Shown: piece by piece, positions 1-49,140 of the stretch
Position numbering within the stretch: position 1 is the stretch's first letter
How the letters are laid out: each line of letters starts with the position of its first letter
Virus record (IMG/VR): IMGVR_UViG_3300022602_000025
Length of the DNA: 64,000 bases
Origin: a virus
Lineage: Duplodnaviria > Caudoviricetes
Reading direction: 5' to 3' (one strand)
Position numbers and translations under genes: made by a program
The notes under the pieces: generated by a model
Told to the model about the DNA's origin: nothing
Databases searched by the model: none
The model's input: only the letters and a program-made list of their open reading frames with translations

Positions 1-175
1 GGCTTCTTCGAAGGGCCGAGGTAGTAGAAGGTAAACGGGTTCAACTCCCGGCCGCCCGGAAGGACGGAAGCAAACAGGTTGCTAAACTGGACTAGTATCC
101 CAAGTGACGTACCGAGTCCTAGCCGGCCTTGATAAATGGGTGAATGGTTCCTATAACGATGGTGGAACTACTGAC
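1..175 (+). ncRNA. Candidate structured ncRNA, probably truncated by the window start
   Basis: No convincing ORF. Hairpins include a T-arm-like CGGG-TTCAACT-CCCG (36-50), GGACT/AGTCC, and GTAGTAG(21-27) pairing with CTACTGAC(168-175) with one bulge. Confidence 0.4.
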
Positions 176-188
176 AAATTCAATCTAT

Positions 189-265
189 GGTGTCCATAGT
201 GTAGTGGCTCTGCATACTTGTCTGTGAAACAGGTGGTACGGGATCGTAACCCGTTGGACACCCCA
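189..265 (+). tRNA. tRNA-His(GTG) with genomically encoded G-1 and CCA
   Basis: G-1, acceptor GTGTCCA/TGGACAC, C73, anticodon loop CT-GTG-AA, 3' CCA. Confidence 0.92.
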
Positions 266-275
266 AAAGTTTATT

Positions 276-294
276 CGGAGTGTAGCGCAGTCTG
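276..294 (+). pseudogene. 5' fragment of an interrupted tRNA-Pro-like gene
   Basis: CGGAGTG-TA-GCGC-AGTCTG is a typical tRNA-Pro 5' end. CGGAGTG pairs with TACTCCG of the orphan 3' half at 844-878. Confidence 0.75.
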
Positions 295-325
295 TTTGAG
301 AATATCTCGTTTTGTACGCTAAAAG

Positions 326-332
326 ATAAATA
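326..332 (+). promoter_or_regulatory. T4-like late promoter box ATAAATA
   Basis: ATAAATA 5 nt before the HNH ATG. The same box is at 7373, 8960, 31975, 44421, 48526, 52360, 55026 and 62349. Confidence 0.65.
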
Positions 333-337
333 AGTGT

Positions 338-772
338 ATGAAACATATAGACTGTCAATACTGTAGTAAAACAACTAACACTCAAAATATTAAACGGCAC
401 GAAGATAATTGTTATCTAAATCCAATTAATATTACAGAGTGTGTTGTATGCTCAACTCCTATCAAAGACTACAAGAACTCAAAAGGTACATGTAGTCGTA
501 GTTGTGCTAATAAGCATTTTAAGAGTGGTGAAAGTAACGGTAACTGGAAAGGTGAAAAATACCAATCAATCTGTTTCTTACATCATGAAAAGAAATGTGT
601 AGTATGTGGTGAGGACAAAATTGTAGCAGTACATCATTATGATCATAACCATGAAAATAATGATCCAAACAATTTAGTTCCATTATGTCCTACACACCAT
701 AGTTATGTTCATAGTCGTTATATTGGAGAGGTACAATCTATAATAGACGATTATGTTAAAACCCGTGTGTAG
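338..772 (+). CDS. HNH homing endonuclease with Cys-rich Zn-binding N-terminus
   Basis: CxxC pairs plus CVVCG...VHHYDHNHENNDPNNLVPLCPTHH HNH motif. The stop codon overlaps the 5' end of tRNA-Pro. Confidence 0.85.
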   Translation: MKHIDCQYCSKTTNTQNIKRHEDNCYLNPINITECVVCSTPIKDYKNSKGTCSRSCANKHFKSGESNGNWKGEKYQSICFLHHEKKCVVCGEDKIVAVHHYDHNHENNDPNNLVPLCPTHHSYVHSRYIGEVQSIIDDYVKTRV

Positions 773-839
773 CTCAGCCTGGTAGAGCTCTGCGTTTGGG
801 ACGCAGTGGTCGCATGTTCAAATCGTGTCACACGGACCA
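763..839 (+). tRNA. tRNA-Pro(TGG)
   Basis: Acceptor CCGTGTG/CACACGG, anticodon arm CTGCG-TTTGGGA-CGCAG, CCA. Confidence 0.92.
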
Positions 840-843
840 ATTT

Positions 844-878
844 AGGTGTTTAAGGTTCGAATCCTTGTACTCCGACCA
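844..878 (+). pseudogene. 3' fragment (T-arm, acceptor strand, ACCA) of the interrupted tRNA
   Basis: TAAGG-TTCGAAT-CCTTG-TACTCCG-A-CCA with no D or anticodon arm upstream. Complements the 276-282 acceptor strand. Confidence 0.75.
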
Positions 879-903
879 ATTTTATTTTTTTTAGGAGATA
901 GGC

Positions 904-927
904 ATGAAACGTTCAGGTAAACGTTAG
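904..927 (+). CDS. Mini-ORF MKRSGKR (possible leader peptide)
   Basis: AGGAGA Shine-Dalgarno at 893-898, then ATG AAA CGT TCA GGT AAA CGT TAG. Confidence 0.4.
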   Translation: MKRSGKR

Positions 928-988
928 TGTCAACCTTAACCCCGTATTGGTTCTGGTTGGCACATTAAATCAATTTAATTACGACCAA

Positions 989-1064
989 CCACTTGTAGCG
1001 TTAACGGTAGCGCACTTGACTCTTAATCAATGAGGTGTCAGTTCGAATCTGACCAAGTGGACCA
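989..1064 (+). tRNA. tRNA-Lys(CTT)
   Basis: Acceptor CCACTTG/CAAGTGG, loop CT-CTT-AA, T loop TTCGAAT, CCA. Confidence 0.9.
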
Positions 1065-1068
1065 ATGC

Positions 1069-1143
1069 GGGGGTATAACTTAACGGCTAAAGTAGTAGGC
1101 TTTTAACCTATTAATCAGGGTTCGATTCCCTGTGCCCCTACCA
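1069..1143 (+). tRNA. tRNA-Lys(TTT)
   Basis: Acceptor GGGGGTA/TGCCCCT, arm GTAGG-CTTTTAA-CCTAT, CCA. Confidence 0.9.
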
Positions 1144-1147
1144 TATT

Positions 1148-1272
1148 GAATCTTTATACACATGCACACTTGGACAAGGCCTTGTCTAGTTATGGTAAAC
1201 TGCCCCGGTCATTGGCCGGAACTGGTGAAGCAGGTTCAATTCCTGCGATAGTGTGCAGTTGTATACAGATTC
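1148..1272 (+). ncRNA. Candidate structured RNA with a long closing stem and a tRNA-like T-arm
   Basis: GAATC..TATACA..TGCACACT pairs with AGTGTGCA..TGTATA..GATTC. Internal GCAGG-TTCAATT-CCTGC and CCGGTC/GGCCGG hairpins. Confidence 0.55.
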
Positions 1273-1289
1273 TTAAAAAGGAGATTGAA

Positions 1290-1655
1290 ATGAGCTTGTA
1301 CAATATGCTATTTGGTGTAAACCCAAACTCAGATCAACTTCTGGGTATCCTGGGTTATACTCGTGGAGATTGCGGTCGTTTCCGTGATGTGTATGTCGAT
1401 GATGGTTTTATCGTTATTCATACTCGTAATGGCGGCGGTAACCGTGAAGACTACGAAGATGTCTTTGACATGATGTCAGAACATCCGTGGTATGAAAAAG
1501 ACGAAGATGACAGCTTTGACTGTACCTATGCCAACATCTACTTCCGTGTTCCGGAAGACAGGATGAAAACAATGGTAGCGTTACTTGATCAAGGTCATGA
1601 CCCTGCAACCGCATGGAAAGAATTGTTCGATCACATGCGAGCAGATGCAAAATAA
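1290..1655 (+). CDS. Hypothetical protein directly upstream of rtcB
   Basis: AAGGAG SD before ATG 1290. The ORF track's extension to 1146 overlaps the structured RNA. Confidence 0.7.
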   Translation: MSLYNMLFGVNPNSDQLLGILGYTRGDCGRFRDVYVDDGFIVIHTRNGGGNREDYEDVFDMMSEHPWYEKDEDDSFDCTYANIYFRVPEDRMKTMVALLDQGHDPATAWKELFDHMRADAK

Positions 1656-1664
1656 GGATACAAA

Positions 1665-2852
1665 ATGGAAAATGTAAAGATGTGGACAGGCGATATGGTT
1701 GTAGAGCGTGAAGCTCTTGACCAAATTCGCAACATCGCTAGCTTGCCAATCTTGGCAGGACACTTAGCGATCATGCCAGACGTCCACGCTGGTATAGGTG
1801 CTACAGTTGGTTCAGTAATTCCAACTCGTGGTGCTATTATTCCTGCTGCGGTAGGAGTAGACATTGGTTGTGGGATGTGTGCTGTTATGACAAACTTAAC
1901 AGCAGAAGACTTGCCAGATAGCTTGTTTGCTATGCGAAACGACATTGAACGATCAGTTCCTGTTGGATTCTCTGAACACAAACAAAGTTCTATCAAGGTT
2001 AAAGGTCACTATGCTGATGTACTGCGTAAAGCAGAAACAAAGTTGTTTCAACGCTGGGAAAAACTAGCATTGAAAGAAAAGTTAGGTCGTGCAGACCCTT
2101 ACAAGATTGCCAACCAAATTGGTACTCTTGGAGGTGGAAATCACTTTATTGAAATCTGTTTGGACTCTGAAAACCGTGTGTGGGTAATGTTACACTCTGG
2201 TTCTCGTGGTATTGGTAACCAAATTGGTAGTGTTGCAATCAACATGGCCAAGGAAGTTGCTATCCGTGAAAACCGTAAGTTAGTAGACAGTAACTTAGCA
2301 TGGTTGGACGAAGGTTCAGCTGAATTCAATTCCTACATCGAATCTATGCACTGGGCTCAAGATTACGCTATGCTTAATCGTGAGACTATGATGCAGATTG
2401 TGTTGGAAGGTTTACGTAAGCGTTTTACTAAGATGAAAATCTTAGGAGAAGTTGTAAACTGCCATCACAACTTTACTTCGTTAGAAAACCACTTTGACGA
2501 AGATGTGTGGGTAACTCGTAAAGGTGCCGTATCAGCTCGTGAGGGCCAAATGGGCATTATACCAGGATCAATGGGTGCTAAGTCATTCATCGTGAAAGGT
2601 AAGGGGAACCACGATTCATATTGTTCATGCTCACACGGGGCTGGACGCACAATGAGCCGTACAAAAGCACGTCAGTTCTTCAGTACTGAAGATCTTGTCG
2701 CACAGACCCAAGGCGTTGAGTGTCGTAAAGACCAAGACGTCCTTGACGAGATCCCAGGTGCCTACAAGGATATCGACGCTGTTATGGCCGCACAAACTGA
2801 TTTAGTGGATGTAGTTCACACACTAAAGCAAGTCTTGTGTGTAAAAGGGTAA
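1665..2852 (+). CDS. rtcB: RtcB RNA 3'-phosphate/5'-OH ligase
   Basis: Motifs PDVHAG, GVDIGCG, GTLGGGNHFIE, HSGSRG, CHHN and CSHGAGR (guanylylated His). Confidence 0.97.
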   Translation: MENVKMWTGDMVVEREALDQIRNIASLPILAGHLAIMPDVHAGIGATVGSVIPTRGAIIPAAVGVDIGCGMCAVMTNLTAEDLPDSLFAMRNDIERSVPVGFSEHKQSSIKVKGHYADVLRKAETKLFQRWEKLALKEKLGRADPYKIANQIGTLGGGNHFIEICLDSENRVWVMLHSGSRGIGNQIGSVAINMAKEVAIRENRKLVDSNLAWLDEGSAEFNSYIESMHWAQDYAMLNRETMMQIVLEGLRKRFTKMKILGEVVNCHHNFTSLENHFDEDVWVTRKGAVSAREGQMGIIPGSMGAKSFIVKGKGNHDSYCSCSHGAGRTMSRTKARQFFSTEDLVAQTQGVECRKDQDVLDEIPGAYKDIDAVMAAQTDLVDVVHTLKQVLCVKG

Positions 2853-2892
2853 GGCAAGGAACTCGTTTAGTGGGGTGTACGTAACACTCCAC

Positions 2893-2964
2893 ACCATATA
2901 CAAGCACATTGTTCGGCATGCTGGGCCCTAGGTATAACCTCCAGTCAGTGTGCTTATATATGGT
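2893..2964 (+). ncRNA. Long-stem element of the AAGCACATT/AGTGTGCTT family
   Basis: ACCATATACAAGCACATT pairs with AGTGTGCTTATATATGGT around a 36-nt insert with its own hairpins. Confidence 0.5.
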
Positions 2965-2992
2965 TGACAAAACCAAAAAGAGACAGTATAAT
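2964..2992 (+). promoter_or_regulatory. sigma70-type promoter
   Basis: TTGACA-17 nt-TATAAT. A near-identical copy lies at 5311-5339. Confidence 0.85.
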
Positions 2993-3016
2993 ATATACTG
3001 TTCTTTAAAAAATTGT

Positions 3017-3182
3017 CATTACTTGAAAACATTAGTAGGTATCGTGTATGGACGCATACACTAGGCGGGCTGGTCGGGCCATCGATCAGTCCTGAGAAAA
3101 CTAGGGCAATGGCTTAGGACTTCGTCGCGGAAGACTCCAAAATTCGCTTAACCTATAGGGTTATTAGTGTTTTCAATTAATG
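3017..3182 (+). ncRNA. Candidate multibranch ncRNA transcribed from the 2964 promoter
   Basis: TTGAAAACATTA/TAGTGTTTTCAA closing stem. Internal GTGTATG/CATACAC, GCTGGTCG/CGATCAGT and GTCCTGAG/CTTAGGAC helices. No ORF. Confidence 0.55.
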
Positions 3183-3256
3183 GTAATGTAGCATAATGGT
3201 AGTGCACCTCCTTCATACGGAGCCCAGTGAAAGTTCGACTCTTTCCATTACCACCA
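3182..3256 (+). tRNA. tRNA with CAT anticodon (elongator Met or Ile2)
   Basis: Acceptor GGTAATG/CATTACC, loop TT-CAT-AC, CCA. G1-C72 is paired, so not the initiator. Confidence 0.85.
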
Positions 3257-3262
3257 AACAAT

Positions 3263-3338
3263 GCGGATGTAGTTCAGTTGGTAGAATACATGCTTGCCAA
3301 GCACGAGGTCACGGGTTCGAACCCCGTCATCCGCTCCA
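3263..3338 (+). tRNA. tRNA-Gly(GCC)
   Basis: GCGGATG/CATCCGC, loop TT-GCC-AA, U73-CCA. Confidence 0.92.
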
Positions 3339-3344
3339 AATAAG

Positions 3345-3373
3345 TTGACTACAGCCTATAATGGCTGTATCAT
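3345..3373 (+). promoter_or_regulatory. sigma70-type promoter (leaderless gene follows)
   Basis: TTGACT-17-TATCAT, ATG after a 6-nt gap. Confidence 0.6.
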
Positions 3374-3379
3374 GGTTGA

Positions 3380-3991
3380 ATGAGAATTAGTAAATCAGAA
3401 ATTTTTCCAACTACGATTGTATCAGTAGATGTATCAGATTTTATCACTAAACAGGATCAACAGGATCTTATACGTGAGATTGATGCTATGTGTCAAAAAC
3501 CTGAGCTGTTACATCTAAATGATTTAGCACCTTTAGTACAGTCTAAACCATTTGTGTTTGGACATGATCAAAGTGCTGTGTGGTTAAAGTTGCGTAGGTC
3601 ATTCCAAATGGCTTGTGAAGCATACGTAAAGAATACTGCACAGTTTGTTACTAATCAGGAAGAATTATTTTTTACTACATGCAGAGCATGGTTTTATAAA
3701 AGCAATTCAGATGATCAGAAGAAGAGTGGTCAGCCTTGGCATAATCATAATCCATCATTTCTAAGTGGTGCGTTTTATTTGAAGATCCCAAGTGATGCTG
3801 AACCTGCAGGAACTGAGTTTTTAGATCCTAGGCATCCTTCTGCTCATAGAAATAAAACATATGAAATTGTTCCGTTAGAATTAACGTGGACAATATTCCC
3901 AGGATGGTTGAATCATCGTGCTGGTGTAATTACATCTAAAGATTATAGATACGTAATTGCCGCAGACAGCTACGTTGGTTTAGGAAGTTAA
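3380..3991 (+). CDS. 2OG-Fe(II) oxygenase (TIGR02466-like)
   Basis: HNH..SFLSGAFYL...GTEFLDPR...IFPGWLNHR pattern. Confidence 0.8.
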   Translation: MRISKSEIFPTTIVSVDVSDFITKQDQQDLIREIDAMCQKPELLHLNDLAPLVQSKPFVFGHDQSAVWLKLRRSFQMACEAYVKNTAQFVTNQEELFFTTCRAWFYKSNSDDQKKSGQPWHNHNPSFLSGAFYLKIPSDAEPAGTEFLDPRHPSAHRNKTYEIVPLELTWTIFPGWLNHRAGVITSKDYRYVIAADSYVGLGS

Positions 3992-3994
3992 TAT

Positions 3995-4070
3995 GCACGG
4001 TTCGTCTATCGGTTTAGGACACTGGCCTTTCACGTCAGTAAGACGGGTTCGATTCCCGTACCGTGTACCA
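3995..4070 (+). tRNA. tRNA-Glu(TTC)
   Basis: GCACGGT/ACCGTGT, arm CTGGC-CTTTCAC-GTCAG, CCA. Confidence 0.92.
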
Positions 4071-4076
4071 AGTTAT

Positions 4077-4167
4077 GGAAGAGCAAGCCAATTGGTGATG
4101 GCAGCTGTCTTGAAAACAGTCGAGCGTTAATAGCGCCTTGAGGGTTCAACTCCGTCCTCTTCCGCCA
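4077..4167 (+). tRNA. tRNA-Ser(TGA)
   Basis: GGAAGAG/CTCTTCC, loop CT-TGA-AA, long variable arm, G73-CCA. Confidence 0.92.
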
Positions 4168-4185
4168 AACATTAAGGAGAGCTGT

Positions 4186-4329
4186 ATGAACAAGCAAGAC
4201 GAAACGATTGCCAAAGCATACGGCAACATACCTAAGGAAGTTGGATACACTATTGATTTTTCATTTATTCCAACATGGAGAGGAATTAAGTACTACTGGT
4301 ATAAAGTAGTACGAAAAGTAACAAGATAA
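4186..4329 (+). CDS. Small hypothetical protein
   Basis: AAGGAG SD before ATG 4186. The track's upstream extension lies within tRNA-Ser. Confidence 0.6.
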   Translation: MNKQDETIAKAYGNIPKEVGYTIDFSFIPTWRGIKYYWYKVVRKVTR

Positions 4330-4337
4330 AGAATTAC

Positions 4338-4432
4338 GGAGAGTTGGGTGAGCTGGCTGAAACCACCTTCCTGCTAAGAAGACATACGGGCCAAAACCTG
4401 TATCGAGGGTTCGAATCCCTCACTCTCCGCCA
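4338..4432 (+). tRNA. tRNA-Ser(GCT)
   Basis: GGAGAGT/ACTCTCC, loop CT-GCT-AA, long variable arm, GCCA. Confidence 0.92.
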
Positions 4433-4440
4433 AAGTTTTA

Positions 4441-4554
4441 TGCTTGCTGAGTAGCTACACTGGAACACCGAAAAACTTGCCAAAGTCGACCAAAGCAAGG
4501 ACCGGCCAGGAAGAGAAGGGCTATCGTGGATTCAAGCGCCACAGCGAGCACCCA
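4441..4554 (+). ncRNA. Atypical 114-nt tRNA-like RNA (8-bp acceptor, T-arm, CCA, no normal anticodon arm)
   Basis: TGCTTGCT/AGCGAGCA + C + CCA. T-arm GTGGA-TTCAAGC-GCCAC. CTTGC/GCAAG stem with a 14-nt loop. Confidence 0.55.
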
Positions 4555-4558
4555 ATAT

Positions 4559-4638
4559 GGAACGGTGGCAGAGCATGGTCCAATGCAATCGCCTGCAAAG
4601 CGATAAAACCGTAGGTTCAAATCCTACCCGTTCCTCCA
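4559..4638 (+). tRNA. tRNA-Cys(GCA)
   Basis: GGAACGG/CCGTTCC, arm ATCGC-CTGCAAA-GCGAT, U73-CCA. Confidence 0.92.
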
Positions 4639-4640
4639 GT

Positions 4641-4779
4641 TTTGCTTATGTGCGTACGGTAACCCATATGTGATTAGCGAGTCGACCAAGACACTTGTTA
4701 ATGTACCTGATGTCCGTAGCAGGCTTGGCTACATGCCGGGCTCCGCACACGACTTGGAAATTGTGTAACGGTAAGCAAA
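4641..4779 (+). ncRNA. Candidate structured ncRNA between tRNA-Cys and tRNA-Trp
   Basis: TTTGCTTA/TAAGCAAA closing stem, GTGCG/CGCAC, GTAGC/GCTAC and ACACGA/TTGTGT helices. Confidence 0.45.
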
Positions 4780-4790
4780 TTCATTTTTAT

Positions 4791-4864
4791 GTCTCGGTAG
4801 TATAATGGCAGTACTGCGGTCTCCAAAACCGTTAGTGGGAGTTCGAGTCTCTCCCGGGACGCCA
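4791..4864 (+). tRNA. tRNA-Trp(CCA)
   Basis: GTCTCGG/CCGGGAC, loop CT-CCA-AA, GCCA. Confidence 0.92.
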
Positions 4865-4869
4865 AGTTT

Positions 4870-4968
4870 GCCCCTGTAGCTTAATGGTAAAGAAACGAGC
4901 TTATACCTCGTCATAGCACCGTCTAGATAAGGCGGAGTGTGGGGGTTCGAGTCCCTCCAGGGGCACCA
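4870..4968 (+). tRNA. tRNA with TAT anticodon (Ile AUA) and a 29-nt variable region
   Basis: GCCCCTG/CAGGGGC, arm ACGAG-CTTATAC-CTCGT, variable hairpin CCGTCT/AGGCGG, A73-CCA. Confidence 0.75.
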
Positions 4969-4970
4969 TT

Positions 4971-5045
4971 CGGGCTTTGGTGAAATGGATATCATTGCGG
5001 TCTTCGAAACCGTTGGTGTAGGTTCGATTCCTACAGGCCCGGCCA
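4971..5045 (+). tRNA. tRNA-Arg(TCG)
   Basis: CGGGCTT/AGGCCCG, loop CT-TCG-AA, GCCA. Confidence 0.9.
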
Positions 5046-5059
5046 AAGTTAAATTTAAT

Positions 5060-5134
5060 ACCCCTGTAGTATAATGGATAATACACTGGTCTACGAAGCC
5101 GGGGATTGTGGTTCGATTCCATACAGGGGTGCCA
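5060..5134 (+). tRNA. tRNA-Arg(ACG)
   Basis: ACCCCTG/CAGGGGT, loop CT-ACG-AA, GCCA. Confidence 0.9.
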
Positions 5135-5139
5135 TACAT

Positions 5140-5214
5140 GCGGCTATAGTATAACGGATAATGCAACGGTCTTCTACACCGTGAATGTGGGTTCGATTCC
5201 TGCTAGCCGCGCCA
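5140..5214 (+). tRNA. tRNA-Arg(TCT)
   Basis: GCGGCTA/TAGCCGC, arm ACGGT-CTTCTAC-ACCGT, GCCA. Confidence 0.9.
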
Positions 5215-5225
5215 AACAAAAGTAT

Positions 5226-5303
5226 GCCCCTATGGACAAATTGGTAAAGTCGGCTCTCTCAAAAGGAGCAGTTTTCTCTGTTCGAATCAGAGTAGGGGTA
5301 CCA
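5226..5303 (+). tRNA. tRNA-Leu(CAA) lacking the long variable arm
   Basis: GCCCCTA/TAGGGGT, Leu-type D loop AAATTGGTAAA, loop CT-CAA-AA, only about 6 nt variable region, A73-CCA. Confidence 0.8.
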
Positions 5304-5310
5304 AAACTAG

Positions 5311-5339
5311 TTGACAAAACCAAATAGAGACAGTATAAT
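5311..5339 (+). promoter_or_regulatory. sigma70-type promoter (leaderless gene follows)
   Basis: TTGACA-17-TATAAT, ATG after a 6-nt gap. Confidence 0.85.
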
Positions 5340-5345
5340 AATTGC

Positions 5346-5561
5346 ATGTATAAAGTTAATTGGAATGCTAGCGGTGTCGCTAGTGAGAAAGAAGTAGAGA
5401 ATTTGGATTCAGCGATGAGTTTCGCTAAAGAATTAAACTGTTTGGTTACTATAACAGGTAACGGAATGGAAATCGTTGGACTGTTTGGTTCGGACTCTGT
5501 CAAAGATGGCAAGTGTCCAGACGGTACTGACTACACTTGGATGAAGAGGAGAACCCAATGA
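5346..5561 (+). CDS. Hypothetical protein
   Basis: ORF starting at the predicted TSS, overlapping the next gene. Confidence 0.65.
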   Translation: MYKVNWNASGVASEKEVENLDSAMSFAKELNCLVTITGNGMEIVGLFGSDSVKDGKCPDGTDYTWMKRRTQ

Positions 5562-5866
5562 GCGGCGGACATTTCGACTATAAGCAATATAAAATTGGCT
5601 ACATCGCAGACGAAGTAGAGCAATTAATCATAGACAATGATAGTGATGAACGCAATGAGTGGGGTGACGTTAAAGGTTATCATTTTACGCCAGAAACTAT
5701 TGAGGAATTCAAAAAAGGGCTTACAATACTAAGGCAAGCACACATATACGCACAGCGTATTGATTGGTTGGTTAGTGGCGATGACGGCGAGGATAGTTTT
5801 CATAGACGTTTGAAACAAGAGTTGGAGAATTTAAATGCCGTGGATACAAAATATAGCGTTAGCTGA
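5558..5866 (+). CDS. Hypothetical protein
   Basis: GAGGAG SD before ATG 5558 (MSGGHFDY...). Confidence 0.65.
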   Translation: MSGGHFDYKQYKIGYIADEVEQLIIDNDSDERNEWGDVKGYHFTPETIEEFKKGLTILRQAHIYAQRIDWLVSGDDGEDSFHRRLKQELENLNAVDTKYSVS

Positions 5867-6326
5867 TGTAGGCAAAGGCCATCATTTTGATGCCGGCTTT
5901 AATTCTATGCTGATCCAGATTGTGGATCCTGCGATGGCATTTCCTACTCCAAAGCACCAGTTTAAAGAAGTACATCAATTTGAGTTCTTAGATCTTGAGC
6001 GAGATGATCCTTGGGGCGAAGAATTTAAAATTACGGACGAACAAGCAGAAAAATTAGTTCAATTGCTACAACATGCTCTTGACAATCATATGCAAGTCGT
6101 AGTACACTGCGTTGCTGGAGTATGCAGATCAGGAGCAGTTTGCGAAGTAGGTGTGATGATGGGCTTTGATGATACGGAAGTTTTCCGTAGTCCTAATCTG
6201 CTTGTAAAGCACAAGATGATGAAAGCACTTGGTTGGACATATGACGAAAACGAACCTCATACTATAAATGGTATAGAGCTAGATTCTGGATTGATCGTTC
6301 CAAAAAATTACGAAGGTGATATATGA
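5835..6326 (+). CDS. Dual-specificity/PTP-like phosphatase
   Basis: Catalytic loop VVVHCVAGVCRSG (HCxxGxxRS). Confidence 0.8.
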   Translation: MPWIQNIALADVGKGHHFDAGFNSMLIQIVDPAMAFPTPKHQFKEVHQFEFLDLERDDPWGEEFKITDEQAEKLVQLLQHALDNHMQVVVHCVAGVCRSGAVCEVGVMMGFDDTEVFRSPNLLVKHKMMKALGWTYDENEPHTINGIELDSGLIVPKNYEGDI

Positions 6327-6688
6327 CAGCGATAGTTGAAGTACGTAACAGTACAACAGTAATGAACAAGGTCTACGATGATCGTGGTCGTGTTGCTGTT
6401 CTATATTCACCCGATTATGGCGCAGGTTGGTTTACTTGGAATACAGAGTATCCTGAGATGCTATATGACCCAACCATCGTACATATTGTTCTTCAAGACC
6501 TCGACCCAAAAGAGAAAACTGAAAGAATCGTAGTATATGCAACACTTAGATATCCAGATGCTTATTTGGGCGGAGCGGGTGATCTTACTGTTGAGTGGAT
6601 ACCGGAAGGCACTTTGTTTAGAGTTACTGAATATGACGGTAATGAAGGCATAGAGCTTAAAGAATCAGATCAGTGGTTCGTAGCGTAA
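6323..6688 (+). CDS. Hypothetical protein
   Basis: Translationally coupled ORF (ATGA overlap). Confidence 0.65.
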   Translation: MTAIVEVRNSTTVMNKVYDDRGRVAVLYSPDYGAGWFTWNTEYPEMLYDPTIVHIVLQDLDPKEKTERIVVYATLRYPDAYLGGAGDLTVEWIPEGTLFRVTEYDGNEGIELKESDQWFVA

Positions 6689-6693
6689 TTATT

Positions 6694-6778
6694 GCGACTG
6701 TGATGAAATTGGTATACATGACAGACTTAAAATCTGTTGCCGCAAGGCATGGCGGTTCAAGTCCGCCCAGTCGCACCA
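6694..6778 (+). tRNA. tRNA-Leu(TAA)
   Basis: GCGACTG/CAGTCGC, arm ACAGA-CTTAAAA-TCTGT, variable arm, ACCA. Confidence 0.92.
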
Positions 6779-6782
6779 AAAC

Positions 6783-6979
6783 CCGGGTTACACTTTGTAC
6801 TGTTAATTAAAGTGGGTAATTGCCAAACCATAAGAGCACGGTGCATTGGATCTACCGTAAGGCCCAGGTAGGGCGACTTAAGAAATCACAAAGGCGAGAA
6901 CACTAGTCGTCTAGATAGAAACAACGTGTGGACAGGGTAACAACTCAGTCCGGGGCTTATGTGGTGTAAGTAGCCGGAC
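6783..6979 (+). ncRNA. Candidate ~200-nt structured ncRNA
   Basis: ORF-free. GTTACACTTT/AAAGTGGGTAAT 5' hairpin, CTACC/GGTAG, and a GTCCGG..CCGGAC 3' hairpin. Confidence 0.45.
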
Positions 6980-7060
6980 ACTTTATTAAAGCACATTAGG
7001 CGACATCCGAGTATTCTGGAATAGTAAGGTGGCATAGCCCCTAGTGTGCTTCAATAAAGT
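6980..7060 (+). ncRNA. Long-stem element of the AAGCACATT/AGTGTGCTT family
   Basis: ACTTTATTAAAGCACATT pairs with AGTGTGCTTCAATAAAGT around a 45-nt insert. Confidence 0.5.
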
Positions 7061-7141
7061 ACGTTTAACTTAAATATAATTTAGGTAGTAAGGACAGGGC
7101 ACCACTGTTATGAAAAGCCATAGATGTACTTTAAAAAATAT

Positions 7142-7217
7142 GCGGGTGAAGTGTTTGTGGTTACACGTCAGTCTTCCAAACTGAAATAGACGAGTTCAAC
7201 TCTCGCCTCCCGCTCCA
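7142..7217 (+). tRNA. tRNA-Gly(TCC)
   Basis: GCGGGTG/CTCCCGC, arm TCAGT-CTTCCAA-ACTGA, U73-CCA. Confidence 0.9.
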
Positions 7218-7271
7218 AACTCTCCCTTACACACGGAGTATAATAGGATAAGTTGTGTGTAACAGATCAAT

Positions 7272-7345
7272 CGCGGGATGGAGAAAAGGCATCTCATGAG
7301 TCTCATAAGCTCAGGTTCTTGGTTCGAGTCCAGGTCCCGCAACCA
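7272..7345 (+). tRNA. Initiator-type tRNA-fMet(CAT)
   Basis: C1.A72 mismatch (CGCGGGA/TCCCGCA), loop CT-CAT-AA, CCA. The anticodon stem lacks the usual three G-C pairs. Confidence 0.75.
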
Positions 7346-7384
7346 TTTCAATGCAATTTTAACAACAGACGGATAAATAATTAT

Positions 7385-7837
7385 ATGCTAACATTTATCA
7401 CAGATCTTGCAAGCCCACTGCTACAGTTCATCAAGGATGACCCAGTGCGTCCTGAGATTCCTGTTGACTTCCGTGTTAGCGAAAATCGTTTTGTTTCTAG
7501 TATTGTCGAAGGCGAAGATCCTAAGGCAATCGTTTGTGTAGCACTACAGGACTTTGTTCCTTCAAGTGTAGCTGAACTAGCACAAGAAACATTTGCACCA
7601 AATACAGCGATTTTCTATACTATCTGGAGTTACGCACCTGGTGCAGGTAAAGAACTTCTTCTTCAAACTGTTGATCGTATCCGCGAACAATTTCCAACCG
7701 TTACACGCTTTGTTACGCTAAGTCCAAAGAGTGAAATGGCCAAACGTTTCCACTTAAAAAATGGCGCAGAAATCTTCCGCGAAAACGATGATACAGTTAA
7801 TTATGAATACAAAATACTTGACTTCGCTCAAGATTAA
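7385..7837 (+). CDS. Hypothetical protein, possible GNAT-like fold
   Basis: ATAAATA box 5 nt upstream of the ATG. AIFYTIWSYAPGAGKELL...A.RFHLKNG resembles GNAT motifs A/B (weak). Confidence 0.55.
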   Translation: MLTFITDLASPLLQFIKDDPVRPEIPVDFRVSENRFVSSIVEGEDPKAIVCVALQDFVPSSVAELAQETFAPNTAIFYTIWSYAPGAGKELLLQTVDRIREQFPTVTRFVTLSPKSEMAKRFHLKNGAEIFRENDDTVNYEYKILDFAQD

Positions 7838-7846
7838 TTGTACAAT
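7818..7846 (+). promoter_or_regulatory. sigma70-type promoter
   Basis: TTGACT-17-TACAAT. Confidence 0.7.
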
Positions 7847-7860
7847 ATTACATAAGGTTT

Positions 7861-8128
7861 GAAAATCAAGTTCGCTTGGTTTTCCGGTAGGGTAAAACAG
7901 AGATGAGAGATAGCGCCACAGTTAACGACTACAAATCGTTTACTGAACTATTGGCCTTGACAGCCTCCGTAACTTAGTGACCCAGGGTAAATTTGCTTAA
8001 TCGCTATGTCATTTGCTCCTTGGAAATGTTAAGTTCTCTGTTATTTGTTACTTGTAAGTGAAGGTTAGTCACCTGAACAAATTGTCTTTTGCATTTTGTC
8101 CAGCTATTCACTTGCTGTTTTACCAACC
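7861..8128 (+). ncRNA. Candidate ~270-nt structured leader or ncRNA
   Basis: 10-bp UUCG hairpin (7861-7884), long-range GGTAGGGTAAAACAG/CTGTTTTACCAACC pairing (7886-7900/8115-8128), ATAGCG/CGCTAT and CAGT-AACGA/TCGTT-ACTG helices. Confidence 0.6.
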
Positions 8129-8155
8129 GTTTTTACAATTTAAAAAGGATTTAAA

Positions 8156-8731
8156 ATGAAAATTTCTCTTCGCAAGGCATCTGTAGTACAACAAAACATC
8201 CAACAACTGTTGAAGTCTGTTGAGGTTGCAACTACTGTAAAGTTTAACGAATTTGAAGAAACTGCAGACGTTTTGGCTAAGGCTACAGAAGCTCTGTATG
8301 CCGCAGACAACCGCCGTGCCCAATTGCTTGCAGCCTTGTACGCTGTACGCAAACTAGTAGCTCGTGCAAACGTTGAGACAGAAATCAGCGATCGTTTGGC
8401 TAGCTGTGCATTTATCGACAAGCGTTTGAGCCAGCTTGCTCCGCTTACAGAAAAGACAGCTCTGCAGGAACCTGCCGCTGTTGTTGCAGGTAAGCTAGAC
8501 AAGATTCGCAACGACAAGGGCGAAAGCCGTCGTAGTATCTACGGATACGATGACACAGTTAGCTCTGGCATTTTGCTAGCTACCCAAATTGAAGGTTTCC
8601 AAAGTGAAGTACTAGAACTTAAGAAATCTAAACAAAAGCTCAACGATGAAATTTTGGAACTCAATGTCCGTACAGAGATTGAAATTCCAGAAGATATCGA
8701 AGAAATTCTGCTTAAGGAACATTTGGTTTAA
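8156..8731 (+). CDS. Helical/coiled-coil hypothetical protein
   Basis: 191-aa ORF with AAGGA SD and heptad-like Leu/Lys/Glu-rich segments. Confidence 0.75.
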   Translation: MKISLRKASVVQQNIQQLLKSVEVATTVKFNEFEETADVLAKATEALYAADNRRAQLLAALYAVRKLVARANVETEISDRLASCAFIDKRLSQLAPLTEKTALQEPAAVVAGKLDKIRNDKGESRRSIYGYDDTVSSGILLATQIEGFQSEVLELKKSKQKLNDEILELNVRTEIEIPEDIEEILLKEHLV

Positions 8732-8738
8732 AAAGAAA

Positions 8739-8767
8739 TTGCTCACTAGGTTACAATTATGTATAAT
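8739..8767 (+). promoter_or_regulatory. sigma70-type promoter for the atypical tRNA
   Basis: TTGCTC-17-TATAAT, 6 nt before the RNA 5' end. Confidence 0.55.
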
Positions 8768-8773
8768 TACATA

Positions 8774-8875
8774 GTGGCTGTGAGCAAATATGGCAAAGCT
8801 CTCCCCCTTTTGGGTCGAGGTCGGGCAACGTTCTAAACAACGCCCATGGAGGTTCAAGCCCTCCCAGCCACACCA
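8774..8875 (+). tRNA. Leu-type tRNA scaffold with an aberrant anticodon arm (undetermined anticodon)
   Basis: GTGGCTG/CAGCCAC, A73-CCA, D arm AGC-AAATATGGCAAA-GCT, T arm GGAGG-TTCAAGC-CCTCC, long variable arm GGGC/GCCC. No canonical 5-bp/7-nt anticodon arm. Confidence 0.6.
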
Positions 8876-8882
8876 GATTTAA

Positions 8883-8956
8883 GCCCTGTTCGTATAGAGG
8901 CATTACGCCTGATTTGTAATCAGGTTACGGCAGTTCGATTCTGTCACGGGGCACCA
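8883..8956 (+). tRNA. tRNA-Thr(TGT)
   Basis: GCCCTGT/ACGGGGC, arm CCTGA-TTTGTAA-TCAGG, CCA. Confidence 0.92.
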
Positions 8957-9024
8957 GAGATAAATAATTGTAGCAGTGCCCGAGTGGGGCTGCTACAATT
9001 CTTGCTTAACAAAGGAGAAAAATA

Positions 9025-10950
9025 ATGAGCAAAATCATCGGTATCGACTTAGGTACAACTAATAGCTGCGTAGCTATCATCGAGAACGGAACTTCCAAAG
9101 TAATTGAAAATTCAGAAGGCGCAAGAACAACGCCCTCAATCGTCGCCTATATGGATGACGGTGAAGTAATCATTGGAGCACCTGCAAAACGCCAGGCCGT
9201 TACAAATCCAAAAAATACAATCTATGCCGCCAAGCGTTTAATTGGTCGTAGATTTTCAGAAGATGCTGTACAAAAAGACATTGACCTAATGCCTTACAAA
9301 ATCGTAGCGGCAGACAATGGTGACGCATGGGTAGAAGTGCGTGACGACAAACTAGCACCTCCACAAATTAGTGCTGAAGTTCTTCGCAAGATGAAGAAGA
9401 CCGCAGAAGACTATTTGGGTGAACCAGTAACACAGGCTGTTATTACAGTACCAGCTTACTTCAATGACTCACAACGTCAAGCAACTAAAGATGCAGGTAA
9501 GATCGCAGGTTTAGAAGTTCTGCGTATTATCAACGAGCCAACAGCGGCTGCACTAGCGTATGGTGTTGACAAACAGGATAAAGCAGATCGCAAGATTGCA
9601 GTTTACGACTTGGGTGGTGGTACATTTGACGTATCTATCATTGAAATCGCAAACGTAGATGGCGACAAACAAATTGAAGTTCTTTCAACTAACGGAGATA
9701 CATTCCTAGGTGGTGAAGACTTTGACCAACGTATTATGGATCACATTATCGCAGAATTCAAGAAAGAATCTGGTGTTGATCTAAGCAAGGATGTACTTGC
9801 ACTACAGCGTCTAAAAGATGCGGCTGAAAAGGCTAAGATTGAGTTGTCTAGCTCAATGCAAACAGAAGTTAACTTGCCTTACATTACAGCAGATGCAAGC
9901 GGTCCAAAACATTTGAATATTAAAATCACTCGTAGCAAGTTTGAAAATCTTGTTGAAGAATTGATTGAGCGTAGTTTGGTTCCATGCCGTACAGCTCTAG
10001 CAGATGCTAAAGTTAGTGCTAGCGACATTGACGAAGTTATCCTAGTCGGTGGACAAACACGTATGCCTAAAGTACAAGAAGCAGTTGAGAAACTGTTTGG
10101 CAAGGCTCCACGTAAAGACGTTAACCCAGACGAAGCTGTTGCTGTTGGTGCGGCTATCCAAGGACAAGTTTTAGGTGGTGATCGTACAGACGTTCTATTG
10201 CTAGACGTTACTCCACTAAGCCTAGGTATTGAAACTTCAGGCGGTGTGATGGCTAAGGTTGTAACTAAGAATACAACTATTCCTAGCAAGAAAACAGAAA
10301 TGTTCTCAACAGCAGAAGACAACCAACCTGCCGTAACACTAAAAGTTTACCAAGGTGAGCGTGAAGTTGCTAAACACAACAAACTGTTGGGCGAGTTTAA
10401 TCTAGATGGTATTATGCCAGCACGTAGAGGTGAGCCTCAAATTGAAGTAACCTTTGATATTGATGCTAACGGTATTCTTAAAGTAAGTGCTACAGATAAG
10501 AAAACTGGTAAGGAAAACAACATCACGATTAAAGCCAACTCTGGTCTAAGTGATGATGAAATCCAACAAATGATCAAAGATGCAGAAGCTAACGCTGAAG
10601 CAGATGCTAAGGCTGTTGCTGTTGTTAAACAACGTAACCAAACTGAAGCGTTCACTGGAATCATTCGTGAGCATCGTGCAAAACACGGCGATACAGCTCT
10701 AACAGACGAAGAACGTACTTTGTTTGATGAATGTATGGCTAAGCTAGACGAAGCTGACAAGGGCGACGACGTTGAAGCTATGCAAACAGCATTTAACGAA
10801 GTGTTTGACAAGTGTTCTAAGATTATTGAAAAGCTACAACAAGCTGACGATGATGCAAGAGCTCGTGAAAAGGCAGCTGAGGAAGAAGCTAAGAAAGCCG
10901 CTGAAGCAGCGACTGCAGAAGCGACAGACAAACCGGCTGATGCTGAGTAA
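9025..10950 (+). CDS. dnaK: Hsp70 chaperone DnaK
   Basis: [37 protein letters not shown] and [11 protein letters not shown] motifs. Confidence 0.99.
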
Positions 10951-10954
10951 AACA

Positions 10955-10982
10955 AAATGGGCTAGCAATAGTCCATTTTTTT
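10955..10982 (+). terminator. Intrinsic terminator after dnaK
   Basis: AAAATGGGCT/AGTCCATTTT hairpin followed by a T-tract. Confidence 0.7.
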
Positions 10983-10985
10983 CCA

Positions 10986-11144
10986 ATGAGAAGTATTTGG
11001 CGAATATGGGCTAAAGCCCTAGGTGAAAAAAGTGGCAAAACTGACAAAGAAGCGGACTTGATTGCTATCGTCAGAAGTGCTATAATATTAATATACGTAG
11101 TAACAAATTTCTTTATCATTGCCGGTGTTATACGGCATTGGTAA
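10986..11144 (+). CDS. Small membrane protein (52 aa, MRSIWRIWAKALGEK...NFFIIAGVIRHW)
   Basis: Manually translated, below the track cutoff. One hydrophobic helix. Confidence 0.55.
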   Translation: MRSIWRIWAKALGEKSGKTDKEADLIAIVRSAIILIYVVTNFFIIAGVIRHW

Positions 11145-11178
11145 GTAAGTTTATACAGAAGTGATGTAAAGGTTTAAT

Positions 11179-11263
11179 GCCCCTTTGGCGAAATTGGTAG
11201 ACGCGCCAGATTTAGGTTCTGGTATCTTCGGGTGTGAGAGTTCGAGTCTCTTGGGGGGCACCA
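11179..11263 (+). tRNA. tRNA-Leu(TAG)
   Basis: GCCCCTT/GGGGGGC, arm CCAGA-TTTAGGT-TCTGG, variable arm, ACCA. Confidence 0.92.
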
Positions 11264-11279
11264 CAATTTAGGATATAAA

Positions 11280-11456
11280 ATGCCAGAAGAAAAAAAGAGC
11301 AAAAATCCGTTTATCGCGGCCGCACAAGCCGCTAAAGCAGCTGCAGGAAACCCAAGCGTTCCTGGTGCTAAAACTAGCCAAGTACAGCAGGCTAAATTCC
11401 ATAATCAAGTACAGGGTAAAAAACCAGCTACAAGATCAGCTGGAAGAGGTCGTTAA
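11280..11456 (+). CDS. Small basic, Ala/Lys-rich protein (58 aa)
   Basis: AGGA SD. MPEEKKSKNPFIAAAQAAKAA...RSAGRGR. Confidence 0.55.
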   Translation: MPEEKKSKNPFIAAAQAAKAAAGNPSVPGAKTSQVQQAKFHNQVQGKKPATRSAGRGR

Positions 11457-11515
11457 GTAGGTACATAATGGTTTTGTGCTATGTCAGGTAAATATAGCTG
11501 ATATGGGAGAGAATC

Positions 11516-12247
11516 ATGACACATGCTTCTTCATACGATTGGAGCGAATGGGATAAAAACTCAATTGTAGAAATGGTCTACATGCTTCGGCCTATCCTCG
11601 TAAATCAGACCCTTTCAATCAGTGAATTCCATAATACAGTAACTAAGCATATCAAAAAATGGATGCCTGTCCGTGTACGCAAAAGCCACGAATTACAAGT
11701 AGATCCAACATACGTATGGGTAGGGGGTGTTTACCATACTGAATACGATATGAACAAGCAAAAGGCTATTGAGCTGTGCTTTGCCTATAGCCTAGCAGAT
11801 ACCAAATTAACTTACAATGGCAAACGTTTTAAGCGTCTTTGCCAACGTATTGCAGACGTTATATTGCATGAAGTTATACACATGCGACAAGCCCGCAAAC
11901 GTAAATTTAAAGCACTTCCAGGATACAGTAGTTCGGCTGAATCCACCAAGCAACGCCAAGAACAAGAGTACTTAGGCGACAACGATGAAATAGACGCATA
12001 CGCATTTAATATGGCCTGCGAGCTTAACGAAAAGTTCAAAGGTGATATGAAGCGTATTGTCAACTACTTAAACGAAGAACAAAAGGGCAAGCGCCGTCAA
12101 TACGACACGTGGCGCACATACCTTAAAGCGTTTAATTGGGACCAAAATCATCGCATCTGTAAACGCATCAAAAAGCGTTCAATCTATTACTTGAGCCGCT
12201 CTCAAGTAGTCAAACCCTTCCAATCTAAGGATTGGATTCATCGGTAG
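11516..12247 (+). CDS. Hypothetical protein with HExxH zincin-like motif
   Basis: ILHEVIHMRQ and a downstream EIDAYA. Confidence 0.6.
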   Translation: MTHASSYDWSEWDKNSIVEMVYMLRPILVNQTLSISEFHNTVTKHIKKWMPVRVRKSHELQVDPTYVWVGGVYHTEYDMNKQKAIELCFAYSLADTKLTYNGKRFKRLCQRIADVILHEVIHMRQARKRKFKALPGYSSSAESTKQRQEQEYLGDNDEIDAYAFNMACELNEKFKGDMKRIVNYLNEEQKGKRRQYDTWRTYLKAFNWDQNHRICKRIKKRSIYYLSRSQVVKPFQSKDWIHR

Positions 12248-48503: not shown

Positions 48504-48537
48504 TTATGACGAATCCATTTCGGTGATAAATAGTTGT

Positions 48538-49140
48538 ATGATATACTTGTACATTAAAACTCACCGGAAAACAGGATTAAAATATTTAGGAAAAACTTCT
48601 TCTACAGATCCGCATTTATACCCTGGATCAGGAACAAGATGGCGGGCACATTTAGACAAGTACGGATACGACTTTGATACTGAAATATTGTTAGAAAGTA
48701 ATGATCCTGTTAAGATAAAAGAAGCAGGGTTGCATTATAGTAACATGTGGAATGTTGTAGAAGATATAACATGGGCAAATCTTAAACCAGAATCCGGAGA
48801 CGGAGGAACGTTTACTCACACTGAAGAAGCTAAGGAAAAGATAGGCAACGCATCAAGAGGAAGGCCGAGTCCGTATAAAGGTATGACATACGAAGAGATT
48901 CAGAAAGATCCAATAAAAGCGTTAGAAAGAAAACAGCAACATCAGCAGTGGATGGAAGAAAATAACCCGTATCGAGGAAAAACTCACTCTGATGAGAGCA
49001 GAGAAAAAATGAAAAGTTCTGCATCGAAAAGAGCATTACTAACAGAAGAAGAACGAAAACAAAGCTGGGGTCATCTGAAAGGAAAGCCCTGGTCAGAAGC
49101 AAGAAAATTAGCACAACAAAATAGAAAGAAGACAAAATGA
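48538..49140 (+). CDS. GIY-YIG-like homing endonuclease with NUMOD3 repeats
   Basis: YLYIKTH...KYLGKT...YPGSG catalytic region, HTEEAKEKI and GKTHSDESREKM NUMOD3 motifs. Confidence 0.85.
   Translation: MIYLYIKTHRKTGLKYLGKTSSTDPHLYPGSGTRWRAHLDKYGYDFDTEILLESNDPVKIKEAGLHYSNMWNVVEDITWANLKPESGDGGTFTHTEEAKEKIGNASRGRPSPYKGMTYEEIQKDPIKALERKQQHQQWMEENNPYRGKTHSDESREKMKSSASKRALLTEEERKQSWGHLKGKPWSEARKLAQQNRKKTK

Follow-up and report, generated by a model that had tools for sequence, protein, structure and literature searches.

Introduction

Homing nucleases normally spare the genome that carries them, either by occupying an intergenic site or by residing in a self-splicing intron or intein. Near the start of a 64,000-nucleotide stretch of phage DNA (the window), a gene for an HNH endonuclease and a complete tRNA-Pro gene are found between the two ends of another tRNA-Pro gene, which is broken. 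This locus raises the question of how a nuclease gene came to lie inside a tRNA gene, and what has become of the tRNA that the broken gene once encoded. An earlier note, made from the letters of the window alone, had read the locus as a selfish cassette that enters the resident tRNA gene and carries its own replacement; rejoining of the two halves by the neighbouring RtcB was considered less likely. In this study, we followed up this reading by comparing the locus with its homologues in other phage contigs and in bacterial chromosomes.

Data and genomic context

The window is present in two lake metagenomes (runs X1 and X2). It carries a cluster of 20-plus tRNA genes, every one on the + strand, and the sole tRNA-Pro gene recognised in its 64 kb by ARAGORN and Rfam is the complete tRNA-Pro(TGG) at 763-839. 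Downstream of the insert lie an RtcB gene (1665-2852) and then a gene for a 2OG-Fe(II) oxygenase. The rest of the window resembles a large phage, and the functions of its genes are mostly unknown. Among deposited phages no close relative was found; the sole match covered 138 bp of the HNH gene at 80% identity. The contexts of HNH homologues were taken from IMG/VR, JGI metagenomes, a large protein collection and a contig from a public sequencing run. Loci are referred to by L numbers. All of this evidence consists of assembled contigs, from which neither empty alleles in a single population nor transcript ends nor sites of RNase P cleavage can be read. An assembly artefact could be ruled out, because the identical architecture is found in independent assemblies and samples. 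In the open-access literature, no account of this nested HNH/tRNA-Pro arrangement was found.

Results

A host-type tRNA-Pro gene in two pieces

The broken gene starts with a 5' fragment on the + strand at 276-294, CGGAGTGTAGCGCAGTCTG, which corresponds exactly to bases 1-19 of an intact 77-nt tRNA-Pro(TGG) gene; the earlier note had placed a tRNA 5' half at this position. This fragment of the resident tRNA-Pro(UGG) extends from the acceptor 5' strand through U8-A9 and the 5' strand of the D stem into the D loop. Directly behind the D loop lies a remnant of the anticodon loop, TTTGAGA (295-301, + strand; alignment A1), which goes back to TTTGGGA and in which the anticodon TGG has become TGA. 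The two are brought together by a deletion of 13 nt, namely the second half of the D arm and the 5' strand of the anticodon stem. The 3' fragment is located at 852-878 (+ strand) and represents bases 51-77 of the intact gene, with the T stem-loop, the acceptor 3' strand, A73 and CCA. Over all 27 bases it agrees with both the intact gene and the chromosomal allele of Burkholderiales. This half had previously been drawn from 844 to 878; the ACCA end stands, but the start has to be moved, since exact identity begins at 852 and positions 840-851 belong to a conserved linker. Likewise, the middle of the gene is not missing as a whole. The window's resident gene lacks 24 nt (13 + 11), including both strands of the anticodon stem, and retains the anticodon-loop remnant at 295-301.

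The linker (ATTTAGGTGTTT, 840-851, + strand) is borne by the cassette and kept among its copies. It follows the CCA either of the complete inner tRNA or of an element designated X, as seen in the window, L200, L202, L204-207 and L248. In the window it is written ATTTAGGTGTTTAAGG, the counterpart of ATTTAGAGTATAAGG in other copies, and in these, as read from the sequences, 7 of the 10 last bases match GGGTCCAAGG of the intact gene. The linker may represent a decayed variable loop together with the T-stem 5' strand.

Both halves are the ends, 77 nt apart, of one intact tRNA-Pro(TGG) that is present in many loci, for example L002 and L007, and this 77-nt tRNA-Pro(UGG) gene is intact in over 100 phage contigs. 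The 19-mer at 276-294 forms the 5' end of an intact tRNA-Pro in at least 120 IMG/VR contigs, and the last 25 bases (854-878) are also matched exactly in at least 120. With so many loci for each half, the resemblance is therefore not due to chance. The pairing of the two acceptor strands (CGGAGTG/TACTCCG) noted earlier is complete at 7/7 and includes the same G.U pair as the intact gene. Polaromonas, Polynucleobacter, Variovorax and other Burkholderiales carry an identical 54-nt core of this tRNA in their chromosomes, and the full 77 nt (CGGAGTGTGG...ACCA) were recovered in 117 of 119 chromosomal matches examined. The Burkholderiales chromosomal gene is identical to the broken halves of L200 and L202. 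The 5' half in the window is one base apart from this allele (A9 vs G9), and its A9 form matches a variant common among phage contigs. This correspondence with chromosomal tRNA-Pro genes argues that the broken gene is a host-type tRNA-Pro(UGG) gene, and it points to freshwater Burkholderiales as the likely hosts.

Leader and HNH gene

The remnant of the anticodon loop is followed by a leader of the cassette (302-337, + strand), which contains a CTCGTT box and an ATAAATA box and is a candidate promoter. The ATAAATA box is located at 326-332, 5 nt ahead of the ATG of the HNH gene. Neither CTCGTT nor TAAATA varies in alignment A1, in which the sequences upstream of ten HNH genes are compared. ATAAATA occurs at 10 sites in the window, on the + strand only, vs 22 expected over both strands, and the majority of these sites lie just upstream of ORF starts. 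This distribution fits a function of the box as a promoter. The locus had been said to hold a late promoter; what is there is the conserved ATAAATA box, a promoter candidate.

The HNH gene (338-772, + strand) encodes a protein of 144 aa, and the original gene call agrees with a match to PHROG 1271 'HNH endonuclease' (E 5.7e-11). The ORF has its own start and the conserved box upstream. The protein combines two N-terminal Cys/His zinc-finger-like motifs with a C-terminal CxxC...HH...N...CxxHH core, and its catalytic motif, VHHYDHNHENNDPNNLVPLCPTHH, contains the His...Asn...His pattern. In an alignment of 10 sequences reaching down to 48% identity (A3), H99, H100, N104, N112, H120 and H121 are invariant, as are the zinc-binding pairs C87-x2-C90 and C117-x2-H120. 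The Pfam families HNH_2 (17.9 bits, cut-off 21) and HNH_3 (16.6 bits, cut-off 24.8) scored below their cut-offs. The AlphaFold model of the protein is weak (mean pLDDT 64); no structural match to it was obtained in the PDB at E <= 0.001, and the best Foldseek matches, the HNH nucleases Cap5, IscB and McrA, are not significant at E 0.2-1. At 90% identity the homologues form 543 clusters, and 0 of the 543 are named as a nuclease or HNH protein. Contigs from an RNA library span positions 478-776 of the HNH region, which is not proof of transcription.

The cargo tRNA

The tRNA-Pro(TGG) at 763-839 (+ strand; Rfam 60.7 bits), here called the cargo tRNA and designated B1 in the window, is complete, with a C1-G72 pair and A73. 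Detection by both ARAGORN and Rfam bears out the complete tRNA overlapping the HNH stop that had been described before: bases 8-10 of the cargo (TAG) double as the stop codon of the HNH gene. B1 is 100% identical in L200 and L247, and it is also found as a stand-alone gene in five HNH-less tRNA clusters (L283-L287). Between cassette lineages the cargo tRNAs are 65-78% identical, vs 76-96% for the HNH genes, and in L248 an L205-like HNH gene is joined with the cargo tRNA of L208. Both the greater divergence of the cargo and the mixed pairing in L248 indicate that HNH gene and tRNA are not strictly co-inherited. Judged by this mixed pairing and by the stand-alone copies of B1, the cargo tRNA is exchangeable between cassettes.

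The two kinds of tRNA-Pro gene also differ in the variable loop. In a sample that is biased, GGGTC, AGGTC or GGGCC is found in the invaded alleles and in almost every intact allele of their type; cargo tRNAs have TGGTC, AACAA, AATAA, TGGTG or AGATC, and only one has GGGTC. The variable loop as an HNH recognition site from which the cargo would have diverged is a lead provided by these sequences.

Recurrence in unrelated contexts

In 17 unrelated contexts with different flanks, a tRNA-Pro(TGG) begins 9-24 nt before the HNH stop. These are the window, L200/L247, the run-X3 contig, L201, L202, L203, L204, L205/207, L208, L244-246, L248, L249, L251, L413, L414, L415 and L225. The overlap holds down to a protein identity of 42% (L225). 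In 14 of the 17 contexts the 5' part of a tRNA-Pro gene survives and runs into the same leader at its anticodon loop; in 6 of them a 3' fragment is retained, with an acceptor strand complementary to the 5' fragment of its own locus. Three pairs of halves were observed: CGGAGTG/TACTCCG in the window, L200 and L202, CGGAGTA/TACTCCG in L204, and CGGAATG/CATTCCG in L205-207 and L248. Each acceptor type resembles a distinct intact allele elsewhere (L001, L194/L138).

In L203-L207 the resident tRNA is complete from base 1 to the anticodon loop TTTGGGA, and the leader AAATCTCG follows directly, so that the order after TTTGGGA is AAATCTCGTTTTTGTATCGC...TGATAAATA...ATG. The deleted TTGAGA form, with its 13-nt deletion and a G-to-A change, is common to the window, L200, L202, L208, L244 and L248. 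Past the CCA of the cargo, the conserved linker ATTTAGAGTATAAGG leads into the T loop, which is followed by the acceptor 3' strand and its CCA. The copies that preserve most of the gene, L205-207, are still 15 nt short, and the 3' strand of the anticodon stem is among the missing parts. The 3' fragments of L205-207 and L248 have the cassette's TAAGG as 5' strand of the T stem, and it does not pair with the resident CCCAC; the remainder of these fragments is resident sequence. This mismatch points to a crossover inside the universally conserved T loop. A search for an intact allele of the exact L205 resident matched only three filled contigs; a near relative of this resident is intact in L001. 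The 147 nt between cargo and 3' fragment in L204-207 were considered as an intron and rejected, as they form an element of their own, found behind intact tRNA-Pro genes as well.

Boundaries and empty sites

The window and L200 are 91% identical across 267-885 only and unrelated outside. A 1.5-kb contig from an independent freshwater run of 2012 (run-X3) matches positions 273-843 only, at 96%, and both of its flanks are unrelated. The earlier note had proposed that an empty allele should contain a contiguous tRNA-Pro gene. Such loci were found: the HNH-less loci L028, L095 and L007 contain the small ORF that lies upstream in L200 (89-94% identity), followed directly by an intact, contiguous CGGAGTG...TACTCCGACCA tRNA-Pro, with only the upstream flank in common with L200. 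A search for a two-sided empty site of L200 covered 80 loci with the downstream dCMP-deaminase-like protein, and a tRNA-Pro lay upstream of it only in L200's own contig. For the flanks of the window, the downstream mini-ORF/tRNA-Lys module was found in at least 7 other contexts, 0 of them preceded by a tRNA-Pro.

Selection on the nuclease and persistence of the halves

The HNH ORF is intact in every locus whose contig holds the whole gene (L247, L250 and L268, in which the gene is cut by contig ends, are outside this count), and it is under purifying selection, with dN/dS of 0.01-0.15. Synonymous divergence between the window and L200 is 0.52, and between the window and L202 it is ~1.4. Over the 46 flanking bases that belong to the broken tRNA, the window and L200 have 1 difference, where ~17 would be expected under neutrality at a dS of 0.52, and the window and L202 have likewise 1 difference at a dS of 1.4. 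In the inner linker, 5-6 of 12 positions differ between the window and L200. This pattern fits halves that would be renewed from fresh intact targets, or arms that would be kept by selection for homing; either process would imply continuing movement of the cassette.

Discussion

The anatomy of these loci is probably best explained by a free-standing homing-endonuclease cassette that has inserted into a resident phage tRNA-Pro(UGG) gene and brought a replacement tRNA with it. The cassette consists of the leader with its ATAAATA box, the gene for the HNH nuclease with its zinc-finger-like motifs for DNA binding, and the complete cargo tRNA-Pro(UGG). The selfish HNH cassette originally proposed, inside a resident tRNA-Pro and with a tRNA-Pro of its own, is supported by this comparison, given its recurrence in 17 contexts among many unrelated freshwater phages, the complementary halves specific to each locus, the end of similarity at the broken tRNA and the contiguous tRNA-Pro of the HNH-less loci that have L200's upstream ORF.

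A possible course of events can be outlined. In a mixed infection, the HNH protein would recognise the intact tRNA-Pro(UGG) gene of a cassette-free genome and would cut or nick it near the junction of anticodon loop and variable loop. This region is indicated as the cut site by the junction after TTTGGGA and by the loss of the anticodon-stem 3' strand and the variable loop. The break would then be repaired from the cassette-bearing genome, with two conserved parts of the tRNA gene, a 5' one with D arm and anticodon loop and a 3' one from T loop to CCA, serving as short homology arms. The recipient would retain its own outer acceptor halves and gain the cassette between them, an outcome that the anatomy of many loci shows. 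The split target would presumably no longer be cut, and the cargo tRNA would restore the supply of tRNA-Pro(UGG). As the HNH gene ends within the cargo tRNA, an RNase P cut that frees this tRNA would leave the HNH message without its stop codon, and nuclease expression could be limited in this way.

Several features of the loci do not sit easily with homing. The arms are very short (5', 12-38 nt; 3', ~27 nt), and about 11 nt of the target are replaced, so that the gene is not cleanly interrupted. The empty alleles share only the upstream flank with L200. HNH gene and cargo tRNA are not strictly inherited together, and B1 also exists as an ordinary stand-alone tRNA.

Other explanations of the locus have to be weighed against a homing cassette. 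The block of HNH gene and tRNA-Pro might be shuffled between tRNA clusters by ordinary recombination at tRNA sequences, without homing, with the nuclease serving the phage otherwise, for instance by excluding competitors, by amplifying tRNA loci as SegB does or by cutting host DNA. The tRNA clusters of these phages are indeed heavily rearranged, with other small modules in many contexts, and HNH gene and cargo tRNA recombine independently. A domesticated function would also fit the strong purifying selection on the HNH gene, and for SegB, amplification of tRNA loci has been described as a way to escape defence (PMC13096335). Moreover, distant homologues (L209, L210, Serratia phage BF and Xanthomonas phage XbC2) lie beside intact tRNA-Pro pairs and not inside a broken one. 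However, shuffling leaves unexplained why the block constantly lands inside tRNA-Pro(UGG) at one junction, why the halves are locally complementary in three allele types, and why they are near-identical to intact alleles despite saturated synonymous divergence. We therefore consider it unlikely. Less credible still, and in our view improbable, is an ancient relic, in which a single old insertion into a tRNA-Pro gene was inherited vertically while the flanks were rearranged later. The junctions TTGAGA/AAATCTCG and CCA/ATTTAGAG..AAGG are common to all copies and thus speak for one original insertion, and dS between copies is high. Yet the acceptor halves show compensatory differences between contexts and correspond to different intact alleles, the empty sites adjoin the same upstream gene, and the halves of a pseudogene would be expected to have decayed at a dS of 0.5-1.4 but are intact.

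The possibility that the insert of 550 nt is removed at the RNA level, by self-splicing or by cleavage and RtcB ligation, so that the outer tRNA-Pro is regenerated, is hardly tenable. An RtcB gene does lie 800 nt downstream, and the anticodon loop is the place where the group I introns of bacterial tRNA genes sit. But joining the halves would yield a tRNA without an anticodon stem, with half a D arm and with the anticodon UGA (TGA in the DNA), and L205-207 would still be short of their 15 nt. With 24 nt missing and the anticodon changed, no splicing or ligation can rebuild the outer tRNA. RtcB genes are also common beside phage tRNA clusters that do not have this element. A group I intron or another ribozyme was rejected as well: no match to an intron family was obtained with Rfam at E <= 1 in positions 1-12000 of the window or in ten related loci (L200-L210 minus L206, a duplicate of L205), a scan that yielded only tRNAs and one GOLLD RNA, and removal of the insert restores no complete tRNA. 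The suggestion that RtcB rejoins the halves can be dropped; the neighbouring RtcB plays no part in the cassette.

Beyond the homing cassette as such, one might speculate about a natural 'home-and-rescue' drive on a tRNA gene, engaged in an arms race, although we regard this extension as doubtful. Any host-type tRNA-Pro(UGG) gene would be a target of the HNH protein, whether carried by a rival phage or, possibly, by the chromosome of the Burkholderiales host, and the cassette would survive by means of a cargo that has diverged at the candidate recognition site, the variable loop. That cargo tRNAs turn over unusually fast would then be a result of rivalry among the cassette lineages.

If the homing cassette is accepted, a family of 543 clusters that carries no nuclease name in any source would consist of nucleases tied to one tRNA isoacceptor, and its protein is predicted to read a tRNA gene in the anticodon/variable-loop region. 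The cassette also offers a concrete mechanism for the exchange and diversification of tRNA genes among phage tRNA clusters.

Comparison with known systems

The gene for SegB, a free-standing homing nuclease, lies in the tRNA cluster of phage T4. The recognition site of the enzyme includes the conserved T-stem-loop motif of tRNA genes, and nearby tRNA genes share in the preferred inheritance of the nuclease gene (PMC2330249). Homologues of SegB are widely tied to tRNAs, with no isotype preference (PMC13096335). The cassette resembles SegB in that a free-standing nuclease gene lies within a phage tRNA cluster. However, SegB is a GIY-YIG enzyme whose gene sits between genes, whereas the nuclease of the cassette is an HNH protein tied to one isoacceptor, and its gene lies inside a broken copy of the presumed target and overlaps the replacement copy.

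In Aeromonas phage Aeh1, nrdA is split by mobE. 'Fractured genes' with split inteins, in which a gene has been split by the insertion of a homing nuclease gene, have been described (PMC2677866). As in these genes, a free-standing homing nuclease gene splits a host gene here, and the pieces stay in order and on the same strand. The products of fractured genes are reassembled, by trans-splicing inteins or by association of subunits; in the cassette, by contrast, the pieces are dead, a whole second gene is carried as cargo, and the target is an RNA gene.

Homing nuclease ORFs are also carried by group I introns of bacterial and phage genes, including introns in the anticodon loops of tRNA genes. 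They have in common with the cassette an insertion in the anticodon loop, a nuclease ORF within the insert and, as proposed for the cassette, a spread into empty alleles. In contrast to these introns, no ribozyme was detected in the cassette, its flanking exons cannot restore the tRNA, and a spare tRNA gene would take the place of splicing in averting harm to the host.

Engineered 'cleave-and-rescue' and 'home-and-rescue' drives employ Cas9 in insects together with a diverged rescue copy. The problem of resistance alleles in gene drives has been discussed (PMC6176634). Like these drives, the cassette would pair a nuclease that disrupts a useful gene with a diverged and presumably uncuttable copy; unlike them, it would be natural, protein-guided and at home in phages, with a target that may be essential and a cargo that may be resistant.

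Homologues of the HNH protein with 46-47% identity are encoded by the cultured jumbo phages Serratia phage BF, Erwinia phage pEa_SNUABM_12/49 and Xanthomonas phage XbC2, which give experimental access to the family. There the HNH gene adjoins tRNA-Pro(TGG), usually in two copies, and lies downstream of an intact or pseudo tRNA-Pro; no nested broken gene was recognised in these phages.

What is new in the cassette is the combination of an HNH family tied to one isoacceptor, its position inside a dead copy of the presumed target, an overlapping full replacement and the absence of a ribozyme. Next to the intergenic site and the self-splicing intron or intein, it suggests a third natural solution by which a homing nuclease may spare its carrier: to break the target gene and to carry a spare copy, following the logic of cleave-and-rescue.

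Discussion

The HNH endonuclease gene (window 338-772, + strand) ends inside the complete tRNA-Pro(TGG) carried by the same cassette (763-839), and U8-A9-G10 (TAG) of this cargo tRNA doubles as the HNH stop codon (763-772). The HNH stop lies within the tRNA in all unrelated loci compared (17/17 contexts). Because of this position, cleavage by RNase P at the 5′ end of the cargo tRNA would strip the HNH message of its stop codon, a loss that could keep the nuclease in check as an inherent brake.

Several loci share a conserved, approximately 145-nt element (AGAGCAG.GGATAAGTTACATTATCC ... CCACCA) that begins immediately 3′ of a tRNA-Pro CCA and terminates in a tRNA-like CCACCA. It is found 3′ of intact tRNA-Pro genes at four loci; copies are present at L083:10298-10424, L051:126-252, L136:837-930 and L093:5207-5355. 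In the cassette-bearing loci L204-207 (L205:2979-3120; also L204 and L207) it follows the cargo tRNA, between the two halves of the resident tRNA-Pro. No Rfam family matched the element, which is a candidate ncRNA.

The 5′ fragment of the broken tRNA-Pro in L201, another locus with the cassette, reads CGGAGTG, then CGGCACATAGCGCAGGTCA-TTTGAAA (L201:2886-2935). Two tRNA-Pro 5′ ends seem to be stacked here, possibly as a trace of successive invasions. The tRNA cluster of L201 also contains a GOLLD RNA (L201:1249-1712; Rfam 196.7 bits), about 1.3 kb 5′ of the HNH cassette.

Two Rfam tRNA matches in the window were not called by ARAGORN (4870-4965 and 8774-8872; 57 and 30 bits, respectively). Long extra arms (or inserts) in tRNAs probably account for their length of about 96-99 nt each. 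A mini-ORF (MKRSGKR*) and a structured stretch (together 893-988) precede tRNA-Lys, and this arrangement recurs with 75-84% identity in at least seven further phage contexts (L036, L095, L148, L024, L245, L168, L042). The upstream neighbours differ in every context, so this is a real conserved module.

A second homing-nuclease-like gene (N-terminus MIYLYIKTHRKTGLKY) is located at 48520-49137 and matches PHROG 314 'homing endonuclease' at E 9e-15. Upstream of it lies GTGATAAATAGTTGTATG, with box and spacing almost identical to those 5′ of HNH. ATAAATA, the box 5′ of HNH, occurs at 10 sites in the window, exclusively on the + strand (326, 7373, 8960, 14755, 31975, 44421, 48526, 52360, 55026 and 62349), against 22 expected with both strands counted. 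The majority are 2-60 nt 5′ of an ORF start, which marks ATAAATA out as a candidate promoter element in the phage.

The chromosomal tRNA-Pro(UGG) genes of Polaromonas, Polynucleobacter, Variovorax and relatives (Burkholderiales genomes L293-L412) are 100% identical to the broken tRNA halves of the cassette loci L200 and L202. If HNH targets this tRNA-Pro(UGG) allele, the host chromosomal gene would hold the site too.
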